Of a stretch of 64,000 nucleotides of DNA, positions 15,201 to 56,898 are shown piece by piece (the stretch's first letter is position 1; each line of letters starts with the position of its first letter). Where the stretch lies: positions 26,203,063-26,267,062 of the forward strand of contig NC_057738.1 in assembly GCF_004010195.1 (NCBI RefSeq), written 5' to 3'. Source of the DNA: Chiloscyllium plagiosum (taxonomy: Eukaryota). The translations under genes were made by a program, and so were the position numbers. Under the pieces are notes generated by a model, which saw only the letters and a list, made by a program, of their open reading frames with translations, had not been told where the DNA came from and did no database searches.

Positions 15201-17110
15201 AAGTTAGACAGCATCTGTGGAGAGACAGAAAGAGTTAATGTTTCAGTTCAATCACCTTACATCGAAATTAATTAGAAAGTCCTACAGTGTGATAATTTAC
15301 TGGTGTCAATAAAGACAGGTATTTAAATCTATTTCCATCCTCTTTACCCATCAAATCTCTGTATCTTTTTACTCCCATTCTACAAAGCATTTTTGCATTA
15401 CTTTGTACATTGAAGATGCTATATAGCTGCAAGTTTTTATTTGTGGTTAGGAACATTCAGTAGGAAAGAAACAAATGGTGTACTTTTTAAAATCTGCAGA
15501 GATTTTGTCAAGGCACATGTACCACAAGAGAAACTAGGCATTCACCTTGAGTTGCAAAATTTGGGATAATGGAGAATGTCAAAAAAGGTGGACTATTCAT
15601 GAAACAACATATGTAACTGAACAGGCTTCAGCAGTGGAAATGAAAGATTTGAATCTACTGATACATATTCATATATACTTGACCTAGATATCCATGTATG
15701 CATGTTACAATTGCTATTAACATTCATGTTATACTCCTAATTCTGTTTATTTGCCAGTTTTATACATTTGTGCACTCACATGATTATTCTAAAATCACAA
15801 ACCAGTGATAGTATCAAGGAATGTGCTTTAAACTCGCCTGGTTTATCTCACTATTTATTGATTGTGTAAATTGTGCATAATATCACTTAGCAACTGCTAC
15901 AGGAACACACAGGAATGCACCATGTGAGCCATTTTACACATCATACTCTGCATTTCTTCCAGTACAGACACTGCAAAAAGTATAGAACAATGAGAAATTA
16001 GAATCAGTATCATAACATTCCTGTATTTCAGGTATGATGTAATTATGAGTGCAGAGTTTAAAAAAATCATTATCAGGCAATGCCTATCTCACAAGCTGTA
16101 AATTTTCACCTACTTTACAGAATTCACAAATACATTTCAAGGTCTATAATCAGGAGATCCTGGAGCTGCTCATCTCACACCTTGGACTATAAACCATGCA
16201 CATCATTATCCTTTATGCAATGATGTCCTTGTTGGGTGACAGGGGCATGGGGTGGAGGAAACAATTCTTATTTACCCTCCCACTATTACAATCTCTGACA
16301 GTATGGGTGCCAAAGAGCATGTTCGTCTGAATCAGGTCCATGTACAATGTAAAAGTTCTAAATAGAAGCATCCATTGCCCTACTTGCCAGAGGCCTCCGT
16401 GTTCCTCCGGTTTGAACAACAACGCCTAAATATAGGTGCTGTGTACAGTGACGGCTGAATGATCACATTATTGAGAAGCTGCTTTGTTTCTGACATTGTC
16501 CACACAGGGTCATGAACTTGGCCTCAGTGGATTTTCAGGCAGAGGAGCTGTTGTCTACTCTGTGTCTGTTGTGCTACAAGTGTCCACTAACATTGATAAG
16601 GAACCCATGTGTCTCGATGTCCTAATATGCAATTTTCAGCCAAAGGTGCCCTTATGATGCAGTAAAATTGCAGGAGCCTCGTGGTCTATCATCTTTCATG
16701 CATTGTCGTGCAGCTGAGAGAGGGGCAGTGAGACTACATTCTATGTGGAGGTAAAGATCAGAATGCCAACTCATGAGGCCCTGAATAAATGTAACACACT
16801 ACCTTCTTAATTGGGACCAATGAGGATCATAAGGTATCTTCTCAACATGAGGTTTCCATGTCTTTCAGGTCAGGAGTTTCATTGCAGTATAGTACAGACG
16901 GAGGCTGTTGATTTAACCTTTGGCACGATGAGTCAGGTGAGAGCCATGGGAGAAGATGCTGCATACACTTGTGGATGTGATAAACCATGAGTCTTGCTAG
17001 AGGTGCTTACTATATAACTATGACTCTTGGTGGATGGGACTCCATGGGAATCGCGCCTGAATAGTTATCGCTGAGGGAGACTTGACGTACTTTTGTCAGC
17101 TGCAGTGAAT

Positions 17111-17184
17111 AGTCATGCCTTCTCGAGGTTCCCACTGGTAACAGCATTAGCTCCGTGCTCGGCTATCGCTGGCTAATTGTGACT
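17111..17184 (+). ncRNA. HDV-like self-cleaving ribozyme core of the R2 5' UTR (decayed)
   Basis: P2 AGTCAT 17111-16 with GTGACT 17179-84; P3 GCC/GGT around L3 TTCTCGA; P1' TCCCACT 17130-36; GG; P4 CAGC..TAGCT/GGCTA..GCTG; J4/2 GCTAA with catalytic C at 17173. Confidence 0.8.
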
Positions 17185-17269
17185 GAGGAAAGTTCCAAGA
17201 TGGCTGTTTGATCTGTGTGGATTGCGATACTACTTAGTGAATACCACAAACAAAAAAAAACAACATAAC

Positions 17270-19835
17270 ATGGAGCCAGTGAAAGACTCTCATCAGTCCA
17301 GTTGGAATGCTTCCTCGAAGAAAAACCTCCCCATTGGTTCTTTGATGGTAGCGATCTGTGACAGGTGCCAATGCCACACAAAGAGGGAATTCATCTCCAC
17401 ACGGACGGAGGAGATGACGACTAGACCCGACATACACAGACCAATAGTCTACGCAAATCAAGGCCCAGTCAGACTTGGAAAACCAAGACCAGACATAGAA
17501 GATGAGAACCCTGTTGTGGAAGATGATGGTGACCCACCCCACAGCACAAACAATCACAACACAAATCTTCCAAACAGATGGGAGAAAGAAGCACACAAGC
17601 AACAGGGAACCAAAACATCTGAACTGGTGAACTACATCAAAGCAGTCATCATTGAGCCCTTGTTTTATAGAACAGCACTCAAGGAAGTTTTGATATACCA
17701 TCCCATGAATGGTCTGTTTTGTATGGCCTGCAACTCTGTTCTTCCTACTGTGGGGACCTTCAGAGAGCACCTGCCCAAGACACACCATGTCAAGACCTTT
17801 CGCACTAAATGCTCCAAATGTGATAAGAGTGGGGAATACCATGCTATAATGTGATTACGCGAAATGTACACTCCAAGACTACCAGGAGCCTTCACGTGCT
17901 GACATTCACACCGAAGATGGGCCTTGGCCAACATGACAGACACGAGCATGCCCAACACTGAAAGGAGAAACGTTTGGAGGTCCTGAAGAACACACCCAAG
18001 CCAGGTAGGAAGGCTGACAAATGGATGGAAGAAGAAAACAAACTTCTCTGTGAGTTGTAAAAGCAGTATGCAGCCTGTACTTCCATCAACTCGAAGATAG
18101 CCAGTATCCGTATAATCAAGACACCTAAACAAATCTTCAATAAGTGAAGGATGCTGCAAAATATTGATGTGGGATCTGAAGCTCCAGTGCTCAAACCTCC
18201 AGCGGTTACCCTTGCAGAGGGTGCTGAACACAAATCCTTAGATGTCCACCAATGAAAAAGAACTATCAGTCTAGTAGCCTGCACGCCAAAACATCGGGAT
18301 ATAGATGACCAGCTTACGCAGGCAGAAGAACGTATAAAGAAGAAGGGTGACCTCGATGTTAGAGCCCTGGGCCTGGGGCTAATAGAAAGTATCATGGACC
18401 TCCTTATCAATGGTGAAGACCTCTCTTCGAGGACAGAAGATGGATGTAAAGAAGACCAGAAGAGGAAGAAGACAGCAGAGGAAAGGAGAGAAAGGAGGAA
18501 AAGAAAAGAATTTCTGAAGAACTCCAGTGCCGGAAGATGCTCAGCAGTGAAGAAGACCAAGTTCCAGACCATTCAACTTCTTTACAATCAAACCAGGAGA
18601 CAGCTGGTTAGACAGATCGTGGGAGCACCAGCCCTCATGGAATGTCCACTCTCCCAGCAAGAGTTGGAAGACAATTTCATCATGAAGCTTTCAATCAAGA
18701 ACAGCAAGATAATATCAATATATTCAAACCATATACTGGCAGTAAGGATAATGGATTGCCGATGTGATCCATCGAGGAGGAGGAAGTCGACATGGCCATC
18801 AGAGGAATCGACCCCGGAGGGCAGCAGGACCAGATGGCATGAAGATGGATAACATCCAGAAGATCCATTATGGAAACGCCACAAGAATACCAAGAGTCTT
18901 CACCTTCGGATGAGGACAAGCACTATCCCAGAGCCACTGGTGAGGAGTTGGACAATCTCGATCCCGAAGACTGAAGACCCGAAGAAGCCAGATGACATAG
19001 ACAGTTGGAGGCCTATTTCAATCAGGCCCATGTTGCTTCACCCTTTCCCTAAAACCATGGAGAAGCGACTCAGTGAGAGAGTCCAACGTAACCCTGGACA
19101 AAAAGGGTTCTTGGCCGTGACACCAGGATGCAATGCGATCACTGCAGTCCTGGCCAATGTCATCAGAGGCACCAAGAGAAACAGGAAGGAACTTGCAATT
19201 ATCTAATGAAAATCCTGCAATGAGCTTGCTTGCCAAAGGGATTCATTCAGCTTAATCGAGGTTTTTTTCCCCAGCAATGCAACGAAAATCAAAGGTGATT
19301 GCTGCGGAACCATCCCGATAAACATCCTGAGAGGAGTCAAGTAGAGTGACTCCCTATTGCCAGTTGTGTTCAACATTGTATTGGATCCATTGATATACAC
19401 TCTCGAGGATGCCAGCAGAGGAGTGTCCATGCAACCAGACAGAAGGAAGATCAACTGGTCCACCCTGGTCTTTGCTGATGACATCACCTTGTTGAGTGAT
19501 TCCCACACGGGAATGGTTAAAAAAACCCTCAAAATCGTCCAAGCATTTTGTGAGAATAAATGTCTAACTATTAACATCTCGAAGACAAAATGATTCCATT
19601 TTACTTATTAAGTGAAGATCTTTCTTTCTAATCAAGAACGCAATTGGGTCCTAAAAGGAGGCATCATCGACTATTGAAAAATACCTGGGACCCCGTATCG
19701 ATCCATGGGTGGGTGTGTCAGAGTTGGGAGAGAAACTGAAGATGTGGATTTCCAAGGTTCAGAATACTGCTCTCCACCCAATGCAGAAACTGGAACTCAT
19801 GAAGATGCATATGATTCTGAGATTGTACTATCTTT
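17270..19835 (+). pseudogene. R2 ORF pseudogene (zinc fingers, Myb, reverse transcriptase, thumb; endonuclease lost)
   Basis: CMAC..FREHLPKTH; CSKC..YHAIM[CH]YAKC; FTPKMGLGQHDRHEH; Myb WMEEENKLL..KTPKQI (~18022-18150); AGPDG; IPK..WRPISI; QKGF; FNIVLDPL; FADD at 19471-19482; KYLG; PMQKLELMK. Many stops and frameshifts, and the DxxKAFD motif is deleted. Confidence 0.9.
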
Positions 19836-19839
19836 TAAA

Positions 19840-20145
19840 TTAGATTAGATTAGATTAGATTAGATTCCCTACAGTGTGGAAACAGGGCCTTTGGCCCAAC
19901 AAGTCAACACTGACCCTCCAAAGAGTAACACACATAGACCCATTTCCCTCTAACTAATGCACCTAACACTATGGGCAATTTAGCATGGCCAATTCGCCTG
20001 ACCTGCACATCTTTGGAGTGTGGGAGGGAACCGGAGCACCCGAAGGAAACCCATGCAGACACGAGGAGAATGTGCAAACTCCACACAGACAGCCGCCCGA
20101 GGCTGGAATCAAACCAGGGACCCTGGTGCTAACCACTGAGCCACT
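19840..20145 (-). mobile_element. HE1/V-SINE
   Basis: V-domain (reverse complement TGTGTGGAGTTTGCACATTCTCC..TGGGTTTCC), GGCCATGCTAAATTGCCC and (TTAGA)n tail. Confidence 0.92.
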
Positions 20146-30974: not shown

Positions 30975-33240
30975 GATTCTTTTGGGGGAACGTGGTCATC
31001 ACTGGCAGGGCCAGCATCTATTCCCTGTCACTAGTTGTCCTTGAGATGGTAGTGGTGACCGGCCTCCTTGAAGTGCTGTGCGCCACTTATAGAACATAGA
31101 ACATAGAACATAGAAGAATATAGCGCAGTACAGGCCCTTTGGCCCTCGATGTTGCGCCGATCCAAGCCCACCTAACCTATACTAACCCACTATCCTCCAT
31201 ATACCTATCCAATGCCCGCTTAAATGCCCATAAAGAGGGAGAGTCCACCACTGCTACTGGCAGGGCATTCCATGAACTTACGACTCGCTGAGTGAAGAAC
31301 CTACCCCTAACTTCAGTCCTATATCTACCCCCCCTTAATTTAAAGCTATGCCCCCTTGTAATACCCGACTCCATACGCGGGAAAAGGTTCACACTGTCAA
31401 CCCTATCTAACCCCCTAATCATCTTGTACACCTCAATCAAGTCACCCCTAAACCTTCTTTTCTATAATGAAAACAGCCCCAAGTGTCTCAGTCTTTCCTC
31501 ATACGATCTTCCTTCCATACCAGGCAACATCCTGGTAAACCTCCTCTGCACCCGTTCCAGTGCCTCCACATCCTTCCTATAGTATGGCGACCAAAACTGC
31601 ACACAATATTCCAGATGCGGCCGCACCAGAGTCTTATACAACTGCATCATGACCTCAGGACTCCGGAACTCAATTCCTCTACCAATAAAAGCCAGTACGC
31701 CATATGCCTTCCTCACCGCACTATTTACCTGGGTGGCAACTTTCAGAGATCTGTGTACATGGACACCAAGATCCCTCTGCTCATCCACACTACCAAGTAT
31801 CCGACCATTAGCCCAGTACCCCATCTTTTTGTTATTCTTCCCAAAGTAAATGACCTCACATTTAGCTACATTGAATTCCATTTGCCACCTTTCTGCCCAG
31901 CTCTGCAGCTTCTCTATATCCTGCTGTAACCTGCCACATGCTTCCTCACTGTCAACAACTCCTCCGACTTTCGTATCATCCGCAAACTTGCTCACCCAAC
32001 CTTCTAACCCCTCTTCCAGGTCATTTATAAAAATGACAAACAGCAATGGTCCCAAAACAGATCCTTGCGGAACACCGCTAGTGACGGCACTCCATGAAGA
32101 AACTTTGCCATCAACTACTACCCTCTGTCTTCTTCCATCCAGCCAATTCCTAATCCAAACCTCCAACTCACCCTCAATGCCATATCTCCGTATTTTCTGC
32201 ACTTGTTGTGGGTTAACTCCCAATGCCATTAGGGAGGCAATTTCAGGATTTTGACCCAGCGACAGTGAAGGAATGCAATATATTTCCAAGTCAGAATGGT
32301 AAGTGGCTTGGAGGGCAACTTGCAGGTGCTGGTCTTCCCACGTATCTGCTGCCTTGTCCTTCTCATAAGAAGTAGTTGTGAATTTGGAAGATGCTGCCTG
32401 AAGATCTTGGGTGAATTTCTGCAGTGCATCTTGTATATAGTGCACACTGCTGTAACTGAGTGTTGGTGATGGAAGGAGTGGTGCTAATCAAATGGGCTGT
32501 TTTGTCCTGAATGTTGTCAAGCTGAACATTGTGCAATCATCGGTGAACATCCCCACTTCTGACCTTATGATGGATGGTGTCAAGCTACTGTGTTTTGATG
32601 GAGTTGCACCCATGCAGACAAATGGGGAACACTCTATCTCATTCCTGTCTGTGCATTGTAGATGGTGGGTCAGGCTTTGGGAAGTCAGGGGTGAATTACT
32701 TGCCGCAGTATTCCTAGCTTCTGACCTGCTCTTGTAGTCACTCTTTTATATGGTGAGTCCGCTGGATTTTGGTAACTCCTAGGGGATTCAGTGATTGCAA
32801 CACCATTGTATATCAAGGAATAGTGTTTAGATTGTCTCTTACTAGTGATGGTCATTGCCTGGCATTTGTGAGGTGTGAATGTTACTTACCACTTGTTGGC
32901 CCAAGCTTGGGTATTGTCCAGATCTTGTTGCATTTGAACATGGACTGCTTCAGTATCTGAGGAGTCAAAATTAGTGCTGAATATTGTGCAATCATCAGCA
33001 AACATCCCCAATTATCAACTTATGATGGAGGCAAGGTCATTGATGAAGAAGCAGCTGAAGATGGTTAGGTCTAGGACACTACCTTGAGGAACTCCTGCAG
33101 AGATGTCCTATAGTTGAGATGACTAGCCTCCAACAATCATGACCATCTTCCTATATGTCAAGTATGACTTCACACACAGGAGAGTTTGCCTCCTGATCCC
33201 AGTTTTGTTAGGGCACATTGATAACACGTCTCATTGAATG
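30975..33240 (-). mobile_element. L2-type LINE split by a CR1 insertion
   Basis: L2 tail at 30975-31088; body resumes at ~32199 with reverse-complement GVPQGSVL (ACACTACCTTGAGGAACTCC) and FADDC (GCAATCATCAGCAAACAT). Confidence 0.8.
31089..32198 (-). mobile_element. Young 5'-truncated CR1 LINE
   Basis: Nearly intact RT (GVPQGSVLGP, KFADDTK, LVRPHLEYCVQFW); (AGAACAT)n tail; CpG-rich. Confidence 0.95.
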
Positions 33241-52929: not shown

Positions 52930-55900
52930 TTTTCTGGCTGTAACAGCTGCTCCTTTTTTGAAGTATTTTAGGTGCTGGAGGTGATTTCCTCGAATTCCAG
53001 GAGCAGCAATTACTGTTTCATATGCTGTTGCATTGTCTTGGAACTTTGGAAAAAAAAGTCAAAACAACATCAGTTTTGAAAGGGAGAAGAACAGACAAAG
53101 GAAGAGTAACAAAAAGATGGGGTACTGGGCTAATGGTCGGATACTTGGTAGTGTGGATGATCAGAGGGATCTTGGTGTCCATGTACACAGATCTTTAAAA
53201 GTTGCCACCCAGGTAAATAGTGCGGTGAAGTAGGCATATGGCGTACTGGCTTTTATTGGTAGAGGAATTGAGTTCCGGAGTCATGAGGTGATGTTGCAGT
53301 TGTATAAGACTCTGGTGCGGCCGCATCTGGAGTATTGTGTGCAGTTTTGGTCGCCATACTATAGGAAGGATGTGGAGGCACTGGAACGGGTGCAGAGGAG
53401 GTTTACCAGGATGTTGCCTGGTATGGTAGAAAGATCTTATGAGGAAAGGCTGAGGCACTTGGGGTTGTTTTCATTGGAGAAAGGAAGGTTTAGGGGTGAC
53501 TTGATAGAGGTGTACAAGATGATTAGGGGTTTAGATAGGGTCGACAGTGAGAATCTTTTTCCACGTATGGAGTCAGCTATTACAAGGGGGCATAGCTTTA
53601 AATTAAGGAGGGGTAGGTATAGGCCAAATGTTAGGGGTAGGTTCTTTACTCAGCGAGTCGTAAGTTCATGGAATGCCCTGTCAGTAGCAGTGGTGGACTC
53701 TCCCTCATTATGGGCATTTAAGCGGGCATTGGATAGGCATATGGAGGATAGTGGGCTAGTGTAGGTTAGGTGGGCTTGGATCGGCGCAACATCGAGGGCC
53801 GAAGGGCCTGTACTGCGCTGTATTCTTCTATGTTCTATGTAAGCACATGGTGAGGTCAGTGCAGGAGAGAGAGGGAGAGAACCTGCACAGTTACTTCTTT
53901 TGATGTTTTGAATTCATGTATCACTGGACATTGGAGTCCGTCTGGGAAAATTAACAAACAGTGAAATTCACAACTAATCTTGGAGGAAACTGTTTGGGCG
54001 AAGTTCACAGCACAGAACCAGATAAGAGAAGCATTGTTTTAAGTGTGTCCAACAGAAAGGCTGCAGTAGTGAGTAGAGTGGGTTCTTTCTTAATTATATG
54101 TTTTTGGAGATATGTCTCTTGATTAAACTTAAAATATAAGTCATAACTATTAATTTAACCTGGGGCGGTGTTTTGTATAGGAATAAGATGGCGTTATTTT
54201 CTGGGTCTGTAAATTGTGAAGGAGCGAAAATGGCCTTTAGTACAGTGATATATACTTCTTGTCAGATGTGGGAGTTTAAAGAGAGTTTAAGGGTTTCTGC
54301 GGATTATATCTGCCATAAATGCTGTTGGATAACAATTTTATCAGATCAAATGGATCAGTTGGAGAGACAGATAGAAACAATGAAGAGTTTGTAACAGCAA
54401 CAGTATGTGATAGATGGCAGTTATAGGAAGGGGGGAAAGTCTCAGATACAGTCACATATATGGGTTAACTCCAAGAAAGGTAAGAGATGTAGGCAGTTAG
54501 TGCAGGACGCTTTTGTGGATATACCCATTTCAAACAGGTATGCTGTTTTCGAAAATGTAGGAGGTGATGGATTCTCAGGGGAACGTAGCAAAAACAGCCA
54601 GGTTTCTGGTATTGAGACTGGCTCTAATGCAATGTGGGGTACATCGGCTTCCAAGAGATCAATTGTGTTAGGGGATTCTGTAGTCAGAGGTACAGACAGA
54701 CGTTGCTGTGGCCAGCAGAGAAAAAGCAAAATGATGTGTTGCTGCCCTGGTGCCAGAATCGAGGATGTCTCAGAGAGGGTTCTCACGGGGAATAGGGGCC
54801 AGCAAGAGGTCATTGTCCACATTGGAACCAATGATATAGGAAGGGTAAAGGTTGAGATTCTGAGGGAAATTACAGAGAATTAGGCAGAAATTTAAAAAGG
54901 AGGTCCTCGAGAGTAGTAATATCTGGATTACTCCCAGTGCTACGAGCTAGTGAGGGCAGGAATAGGAGGATAGAGCAGATGAATGCATGGCTGAGGAGCT
55001 GATGTATGGGAGAAGGATTCACATTTTTGGATCATTGGAATCTCTTTTAGGATAGAAGTGACCTGTACAAGAAAGACAGATTGCACCTAAATTGGAAAGG
55101 GACTAATATACTGGCAGGGAAATTTGCGAGAACTGCTCGGGAGGATTTAAACTAGTAAGGTGGTGGGGGGGATCTCAGGGAGATGGTGAGGAAAGAGATC
55201 AATCTGAGACTGGTACAGTTGAGAATAGAAGAGAGTCAAACAGTCAGGGCAAGCAGGGACAAGGTAGGACTAATAAATTAAACTGCATTTATTTCAATGC
55301 AAGGGGCCTAACAGGGAAGGCAGATGAACTCGGGGCATGGTTAGGAACATAGGACTGGGACATCATAGCAATTACAGAAATATGGCTCAGGGATAGGCAG
55401 GACTGGCAGCTTAATGTTCCAGGATATAAATGTTACAGGAAGGATAGAAAGGGAGTCAATAGAGGTGGGGGAATGGCATTTTTGATGAGGGATAGCATTA
55501 CAGCTGTGCTGAGGGAGGATATTCCCGGAAATACATCCAGGGAAGTTATTTGGGTGGAACTGAGAAATAAGAAAGGGCTGATCACCTTATTGGGATTTTA
55601 TCATACACACCCTAATAGTCAGAGGGAAATTGAGAAACAAACTTGTAAGGAGATCTCAGCTATCTGTAAGAATAATAGGGTAGTTATGGTAGGGGATTTT
55701 AACTTTCCAAACATTGACTGGGACTGCCATAGTGTTAAAGGTTTAGATGGAGAGGAATTTGTTAAGTGTGTACAAGACAATTTTCTGAATCAGTATCTGG
55801 ATGTACCTACTAGAGAAGGTGCAAAACTTGGCCTACTCTTAGGAAATAAGGCAAGGCAGGTGACTGAGGTGTCAGTGGAGGAGCACTTTGGGGCCAGCGA

Positions 55901-56898
55901 CCGTAATTCTATTAGTTTTAAAATTGTGATGGAAAAGAATAGACCAGATCTAAAAGTTGATGTTCTAAATTGGAGAAGCGGTAGATGTGATCTATATGGA
56001 CTTCAGTAAGGCGTTCAACAAAGTTCCCCATGGGAGACTGATTAGCAAGGTTAGATCTCATGGAATACAGGGAGAACTAGCCATTTGGATACAGAACTGG
56101 CTCAAAGGTAGAAGACAGAGGGTAGTGGTAAGGGTTGTTTTTCAGACTGGAGGCCTGTGACTAGTGGAGTGCCACAAGGATCGGTGCTGGGTCCTTTACT
56201 TGTTGTCATTTACATATATGATTTGGATGCGAGTATTAGAGGTACAATTAGTAAGTTTGCAGATGACACCAAAATTGGAGGTGTAGTGGACAGCAAAGAG
56301 GACAACAGGATCTGGACCAGATAGGCCAATGAGCGGAGAAGTGGCAGATGGAGTTTAATTCAGATAAATGTGAGGTGTTGCATTTTGGGAAAGCAAATCT
56401 TAGCAGGACCTATACACTTAATGGTAAGGTCCTGGGGAGTGTTGCTGAACAAAGAGACTTTGGAGTGCAGGTTCATGGCTCCTTGAAAGTGGAGTCGCAG
56501 GTAGGAGGCTGACAGGTGACCTTATGGAGGTTTACAAAATTATGAGGGGCATGGATAGGATAAATAGACAAAGTCTTTTTCCTGGGGTGGGGGAGTCCAC
56601 AACTAGAGGGCATAGGTTTAGGGTGAGAGAGGAAAGATATAAAAGAGACCTAAGGGGCAACCTTTTCACACAGAGGGTGGTACGGGTATGGAATGAGCTG
56701 CCAGAGGAAATGGTGGAAGTGGTACAACTGCAACATTTAAGAGGCATTTGGATGGGTATATGAGTAGGAAGGGTTTGGAGGGATATCGGCTGGGTGCTGG
56801 CTGGTGGGACTAGATTGGGATGGGATATCTGGTCGGCATAGACGAGTTGGACCGAAGGGTCTGTTTCCATGCTGCACATCTCTAGGACTCTATGACTC
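52930..56898 (+). mobile_element. Long CR1 LINE with 5' UTR, ORF1 (zinc finger plus SGNH esterase), APE and RT; two internal deletions
   Basis: ORF1 from ~54230 (SCQMWE..CHKC; LGDSVVRG; PGARIEDV; HIGTNDIG; LHLN); APE FNARGL, GDFNFPNIDW, SDRN; jump at ~55977 to MDFSKAF; KFADDTK; jump at ~56505; (CTCTATGA)n tail. Confidence 0.92.
53103..53840 (+). mobile_element. Young CR1 nested in the 5' UTR of the long CR1
   Basis: Nearly identical to the reverse complement of 31091-31840 (KMGYWANGRILGSVD..MEDSGLV); TATGTTCTATG tail. Confidence 0.95.

Follow-up and report, generated by a model that had tools for sequence, protein, structure and literature searches.

R2 is a retrotransposon that normally inserts only in ribosomal RNA (rRNA) genes. 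A stretch of 64,000 nucleotides of Chiloscyllium plagiosum DNA (contig NC_057738.1, positions 26,203,063 to 26,267,062; the window) carries the decayed remains of an A-clade R2 element outside the ribosomal DNA (rDNA). Comparison with its relatives in the genome makes it likely that rDNA-resident A-clade R2s of sharks, with leaky, semi-specific targeting, shed dead copies elsewhere, and that the window element is an old one of these. The window copy itself is an ordinary decayed member of an old group; the interest lies in the off-target record of the family.

The window element is a decayed R2

An earlier note on this DNA had identified the element, at 17015-19835, as an R2. This was borne out: the best solved-structure matches of its reverse transcriptase (RT) were R2Tg (PDB 9nl3/9dou, E 3.5e-12) and another vertebrate-type R2, and it was nested among R2s in a phylogenetic tree (99/100, see below). 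The open reading frame remnants matched RVT_1 of Pfam with an E value of 3e-08.

Domain remnants were mapped over 17288-19843, using a three-frame translation and a profile from intact relatives. The 654 residues mapped contain 8 stops and several frameshifts. Three N-terminal zinc fingers (CCHH, CCHC, CCHH; 17720-17960), a Myb-like domain (18022-18156) and an RT (18660-19843) were recognised, all on the + strand. The second and third fingers are broken by frameshift or deletion, and the Pfam zf-C2H2 matches were weak and below the curated cut-off; the finger pattern is degenerate yet recognisable in the window and intact in the relatives. The Myb-like remnant holds two stops and matched Myb_DNA-bind_6 weakly (E 0.16). 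The RT has frameshifts and stops and keeps the FADD motif; an internal deletion near 19206 has taken out the first catalytic motif.

The 3' third of the element is lost. The R2 sequence breaks off at about 19843, just beyond the RT core, and a search across the window for the missing part (endonuclease, R2 3' end and 3' untranslated region (UTR)) gave no match. The C-terminal region, site of the restriction-like endonuclease, is present in the nearest relatives (loci L054 and L055) and in lineages B and C described below. The truncation point coincides with a (TTAGA)n tract (19835-19866, strand unassigned), the tail of a later repeat, and an old repeat adjoins this tract; the (TTAGA)n repeat we take to be a shark short interspersed element (SINE) in reverse orientation. 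The right flank is a junction between a deletion and this presumed SINE and not the original target, and is therefore uninformative on target specificity. An Rfam scan of the window matched no rRNA, no U2 small nuclear RNA (snRNA), no ribozyme and no other family; neither flank is therefore rDNA, as the earlier note had stated.

Relatives in the genome and phylogeny

The earlier note had proposed to count the copies, to record their flanks and to build an RT phylogeny. In the 3.56 Gb of genome searched, at least 150 related RT matches were found (150 scored among 292 candidates), with both 28S rRNA gene (28S) and dispersed flanks. Close DNA relatives of the window copy were few (two matches for the 5' end and nine for the RT). 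The 28S leader pattern had 20 exact genome matches against none for the control: nine open dispersed R2s with non-rDNA 5' flanks, seven are R2-in-28S junctions and four are 28S without R2.

Four lineages were told apart, W, B, C and D. Lineage W is old and comprises the window copy, L033, L034, L054, L055 and probably L042; lineage C is young and AT-rich. One protein of lineage D shares 95% identity with a predicted protein of Chiloscyllium punctatum. Three dispersed lineage-C copies, L088, L076 and L079, have open frames of 1196, 1130 and 1062 amino acids (aa), respectively, and are therefore recent off-site insertions.

A maximum-likelihood tree of 26 local copies and 21 homologues placed the window copy within a shark clade containing the 28S-inserted C elements (support 99/100), and this clade joined B, D and catshark proteins (96.7/98). 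A second tree (FastTree), for which 15 loci with fewer than 200 aligned residues were dropped and 31 of 120 homologues were kept, agreed with this placement. The expected grouping with R2 was found in this phylogeny, which includes no named NeSL, R4 or Utopia reference; membership in NeSL/R4/HERO would be excluded only indirectly, by the nesting among 28S-site R2s. Utopia elements are described as having no Myb domain and as targeting U2 snRNA (PMC13188248), whereas the window copy has a Myb remnant and the window has no U2 match.

L067 and L068, which lie on two chromosomes, hold one and the same R2 copy with a shared 3' flank and zero RT distance, and represent either a segmental duplication or an assembly duplicate. 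An R2 protein of Chrysemys picta bellii (P0009), sister to the shark clade (99.9/100), is annotated as a phosphodiesterase isoform on a 156-Mb contig and is possibly a dispersed turtle R2.

The 5' ends of dispersed copies

The earlier note had proposed that the leader stems from RNA processed by a ribozyme that cuts at position -28 of 28S relative to the R2 site. The sister copies bear this out. Among 27 dispersed W and B copies, identity to 28S was 0.21 at -45 to -29 and 0.86 at -28 to -12, and at least six of the eight letters of 28S -28 to -21 were kept in 18 of the 27. The ribozyme strand P1' is complementary to GGCGGGA at the start of this leader. Across W and B, the leader is identical to 28S outside P1, and the sequence directly after it differs.

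The dispersed lineage-C copies with a 5' end (L077, L081, L085, L086, L088 and L150) begin at or within their own GGGGGGATGTGAC and have no 28S leader. The P1' of lineage C is TCCCCCT-like, as against YCCCGCY. These starts and this P1' agree with the rule that P1' sets the ribozyme cut (PMC3774820), and the 5' ends of stray copies appear to read out the cut of each lineage. In head-to-tail joins of lineage C, a 3' end runs into the GATGTGACTACAG start of the next copy (8 of 40 3' ends). Such tandem joins, at L170, L171, L174, L175, L177, L180-L182 and L137, lie on small unplaced contigs and probably result from template jumping.

In the window copy, an intact piece of the 28S-derived leader, TAACTATGACTCT, lies at 17015-17027 (+ strand). 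It occurs once on the + strand of the window, lines up in the same register as the leaders of L033, L034 and L042, its closest relatives, and precedes the candidate R2-type ribozyme core by about 100 nt. The identity to 28S upstream of the R2 site that had been claimed is exact here and covers only -20 to -8. The segment -28 to -21 (GGCGGGAG) is absent in register; for this reason the copy is not strictly 5'-complete, as the earlier note had held it to be.

A decayed repeat with a period of 33 nt precedes this piece (16974-17006, + strand). It matches 17015-17038 at 17 of 24 letters, a score reached at none of the 63,727 other window positions, and is identical to 28S -28 to -1 at 16 of 28 positions. 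It is either a decayed tandem duplicate of the 5' end of the element or a pre-existing 28S-like mimic of the target, so that 16974, a position that we picked after inspecting the sequence, may be the actual 5' junction. Duplicated leaders also occur in the sister copies L053, L060 and L064 and have been described for other R2s (PMC3774820). The sequence GGGAGAA at 16948-16954 (+ strand), 26 nt before this candidate junction, is a probable upstream target-recognition motif; its 28S counterpart is GGGAGTA at -25 to -19, and sister copies show an excess of the motif upstream. In an attempt to reconstruct the empty site, the 5' flank (16350-17014) matched old repeats only up to about 16907, and no paralogue spanning the junction was found. 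The stretch 16700-17600 was partly present in sequencing runs of two other organisms (shares of 0.26-0.40 and 0.07 for organism B, and 0.16 for organism C).

A candidate hepatitis delta virus (HDV)-like ribozyme core lies at 17111-17184 (+ strand), with P2 (17111-17116/17179-17184), P3 (17117-17119/17127-17129), L3 (TTCTCGA), P4 and J4/2. Its P1', TCCCACT (17130-17136), is the complement of 28S GGCGGGA (-28 to -22) with one change. The minimum-free-energy fold of the region recovers P2 and P4. The names of the ribozyme elements were taken from PMC3774820 and from the HDV fold.

Target sites of the dispersed copies

The 3' end of lineage B was located in 42 of the 47 loci tried. The 3' flank began with T in 41 of these, with TA in 36 and with TAG in 22, the background of TAG being 1.6%. 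When hot-spot copies and L100 were removed, TAG was still found in 14 of 29 flanks. For lineage C, 8 of 40 3' ends were dispersed single copies, and seven of the eight flanks start with TAG. A GGGAGTA-like motif (at least five of seven letters) was present 15-34 nt upstream of the 5' junction at 22 of 27 sites, compared with 163 of 660 background windows (p 2e-9); this count omits five hot-spot sites.

Two sites were used repeatedly. A single site within a CR1-type RT sequence accounts for 12 of the 42 lineage-B flanks, one of them doubtful, and one site in a Tx1/L1-type element was hit by three copies that belong to two lineages. The CR1-type and Tx1/L1-type labels of these two long interspersed elements (LINEs) are presumed. 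Empty versions of both sites already bear the motif and match 28S -28 to -1 at 15 of 28 positions; at the CR1-type site the spacing is one base more than in 28S.

In R2Bm, T at +1 and an upstream motif are the determinants of targeting, and one extra base is tolerated (PMC10499050). The N-terminal domains of A-clade proteins protect DNA on the upstream side, with centres near -30 and -15 (PMC11204384). On these sequence features, the dispersed copies seem to have entered sites that mimic 28S. The alternatives offered earlier, an accident or a non-specific family, do not cover this case, as insertions occurred at mimic sites and the same lineages are also found at the canonical 28S site.

28S junctions and probable sources in rDNA

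Among 36 matches to downstream 28S, 30 follow an R2 3' end, five do not and one could not be assigned; the extent of rDNA was judged by BLAST against 28S copies. Junctions with 28S were found for lineage B (L072, L128, L143 and L144) and for the D type (L119). Insertion at AAGG^TAGC of 28S was seen in B, C and D sisters and in one window-type stub and not in the window copy, which is therefore an off-site copy of an R2 lineage and not a canonical insertion. The stub, L126, lies beside 28S and has a window-type 3' UTR (scores of 59 and 55 against shuffle maxima of 29 and 32); the 3' UTRs of L127 and L042 gave no match in this test. The 3' ends abutting 28S were 3 of 40 in lineage B and 20 of 40 in lineage C. 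These fractions are not rates, given the poor assembly of the arrays and the turnover of rDNA copies.

Several 5'-truncated R2 stubs in non-rDNA sequence carry 28S tails of 55-226 nt (L114, L116, L123, L126-L129 and L132), and for several copies with short 28S tails no 28S turned up in the 1 kb of upstream sequence that was tested. These stubs are consistent with read-through co-transcripts. Private substitutions of lineage B were evenly spread over the codon positions (388/406/367), and shared substitutions were rich in third positions (112/80/320). The dispersed B copies were therefore dead on arrival, while a small number of masters evolved under selection.

In Table S2 of PMC13188248, R2-1_STig of the zebra shark shows an upstream 28S flank and, by eye, a lineage-B-type 5' end, and R2-1_CPl and R2-1_CPu show, likewise by eye, a C-type 5' end; this comparison covers partial sequences for 12 of the 15 Chondrichthyes hits. 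Given the 28S junctions of the sister lineages and the zebra-shark R2, the sources were most likely rDNA-resident, and the window copy is probably a fossil of such an R2, as the earlier note had proposed.

Three further observations were made on 28S sequences. Dispersed 28S fragments at L117:5036 and L118:5076 (oriented) start some 10-13 nt before the R2 site and have no R2 attached. L048 is a composite locus: the 28S site carries a very short D-type 3' fragment, after which comes a C element joined at its 3' end to upstream 28S sequence. The white-shark row R2-1_CCar in the same Table S2 shows no upstream 28S flank in the sequence given and a non-rDNA-looking start, and may therefore be a dispersed copy too.

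Proposed mechanism and alternatives

The dispersed copies may be explained as follows. As known from R2 biology, Pol I would transcribe through an R2-inserted 28S gene. The HDV-like ribozyme, its P1' pairing with 28S -28 to -22, would then cut and leave the 28S leader on the RNA, as the fold and the 5' boundaries indicate. The protein would bind a degenerate GGGAGTA-like motif about 26 nt before the nick and would nick before T, TA or TAG at non-rDNA sites, the recurring CR1-type and Tx1/L1-type LINE sites among them; the sister lineages display this pattern, and the window copy presumably followed it. Full-length reverse transcription would copy the leader, and the 5' end would join with a short duplication, which is seen in the copies, by a route that we infer. 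Finally, neutral decay would account for the present state of the window copy and the observed loss of its 3' third.

Several points weigh against this account. The folding energy of the ribozyme region was no more stable than that of shuffled sequences (z 0.54). The window copy has no 3' junction, and its own target is therefore unreadable. Lineage W has weak support as a clade (81.7/58) and long tips (0.46-0.73), and it is connected with 28S only through a single 5'-truncated stub, L126. Of the 40 lineage-B 3' ends, 35 lie away from 28S. Empty target sites are scarce in the assembly (5 of the 36 matches to downstream 28S are not preceded by an R2), and on/off-target ratios are therefore not measurable. 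The upstream motif was selected after the CR1-type site had been seen, three of the 27 sites counted are the second hot spot, and some of the matches could be partial leader duplications. The bias for TAG could reflect priming of synthesis by a short 28S tail of the RNA and not recognition of DNA: off-targets of engineered avian R2 (about 1% and 0.1%) had mainly downstream primer complementarity in common, so that a short 28S RNA tail may add to the bias (PMC11371274). The neutral decay of private sites fits masters outside rDNA equally well.

One alternative is that shark R2s are stably semi-specific, and that dispersed full-length copies, transcribed by host read-through, form a reservoir able to recolonise rDNA. 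This reading draws on the dispersed copies with their own ribozyme and the long open frames of 1196, 1130 and 1062 aa. We regard it as unlikely; if true, a reservoir outside rDNA would go some way towards explaining the persistence of R2 despite the turnover of rDNA.

It is also unlikely that the lineage of the window copy left rDNA and spread as a free-living family of relaxed specificity, like R2NS-1_SMed and R2NS-1_CSi, with the leader fixed in its ribozyme. Most copies are indeed dispersed, as the lineage-B 3' ends show, a window-type copy of full length was not seen within 28S in this assembly, and a full leader with its ribozyme could free the RNA from host read-through transcripts. However, the leader stays 28S-identical outside P1 across W and B whereas the adjoining sequence differs, and the copies include junction variants and duplicated leaders of the kind that insertion into 28S typically gives (PMC3774820). 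The long 28S tails on dispersed stubs imply rDNA transcripts, and a B-type element is flanked by 28S in the zebra shark. The shark elements also differ from R2NS in their 28S junctions and in a strong bias for T/TAG and the upstream motif, a difference that is based on few copies for the window's own group.

Insertion of rDNA-derived R2 RNA in trans, by the machinery of another LINE of the CR1, L2 or L1 type, is improbable. The genome is rich in such LINEs, and the window itself contains two remnants unrelated to R2, an RT at 31465-32487 (- strand; RVT_1, E 3.9e-16) and an APE-type endonuclease at 55353-56006 (+ strand; E 9e-10); some of the copies with long 28S tails might have been carried along passively. 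Against this, the 3' junctions lie uniformly at the element end followed by T, TA or TAG, the upstream motif matches the R2 site, and T at +1 together with this motif are the determinants of R2Bm (PMC10499050).

Even more improbable is a DNA-level copy of an R2-inserted rDNA unit that later lost its 28S flanks. Dispersed, decaying rDNA pieces with R2 inside do exist (L040, L041 and L072), but the sister copies end sharply at -28 and not at random points, and the window holds no trace of rDNA. The possibility raised earlier, that a strictly specific R2 went off target just once, might be favoured by the scarcity of close DNA relatives but was refuted at the family level by the at least 150 related RT matches and the dozens of dispersed copies of several lineages and ages.

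A 2026 review considers the division into specific and non-specific R2s probably too simple and points out that rates of loss within rDNA and elsewhere may be misleading (PMC13580325). R2 is the model of a site-specific retrotransposon and the basis of gene insertion into rDNA as a safe harbour, and the shark genome is a natural library of off-site insertions of a vertebrate A-clade R2. The strays give a minimal target in vivo, an upstream GGGAGTA-like motif and T/TAG, and abundant host LINEs act as decoy targets.

Comparison with known systems

Insertions of R2Bm outside 28S were reportedly described by Xiong et al. in 1988. Such insertions likewise show the upstream motif and T at +1, and a spacing longer by one base is tolerated as at the CR1-type site; natural ones in the silkmoth are called rare (PMC10499050), whereas those of the shark are common, belong to several lineages and ages, and turn up repeatedly in two host LINEs.

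Elements of R2 type dispersed outside rDNA are also known as R2NS-1_SMed and R2NS-1_CSi (PMC5035012), from Blattella (PMC7650587) and from sponges (PMC13188248). In the available descriptions these families are not specific for 28S, while the shark lineages keep 28S junctions and a 28S-like motif, and W and B, unlike those families as described, keep the 28S leader. The nearest mixed case is R2-1_CGi of the oyster, with one of two copies beside 28S.

The closest resemblance is to R2Tg (9dou, 9nl3) and the shark elements R2-1_STig, R2-1_CPu, R2-1_CPl and R2-1_SCa (PMC13188248), which have the same domain order and a similar RT. A putative HDV-like 5' ribozyme is a further likeness, and the canonical AAGG^TAGC site is used by the sister copies studied here. 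The published shark R2s are defined by 28S flanks, and the accessible part of that work describes no dispersed copies, whereas dozens were found here at degenerate mimic sites. No report of a dispersed shark R2 was found in the literature searched, although Repbase, subscription papers or supplements could hold one. The shark element works like a canonical R2-A with relaxed recognition.

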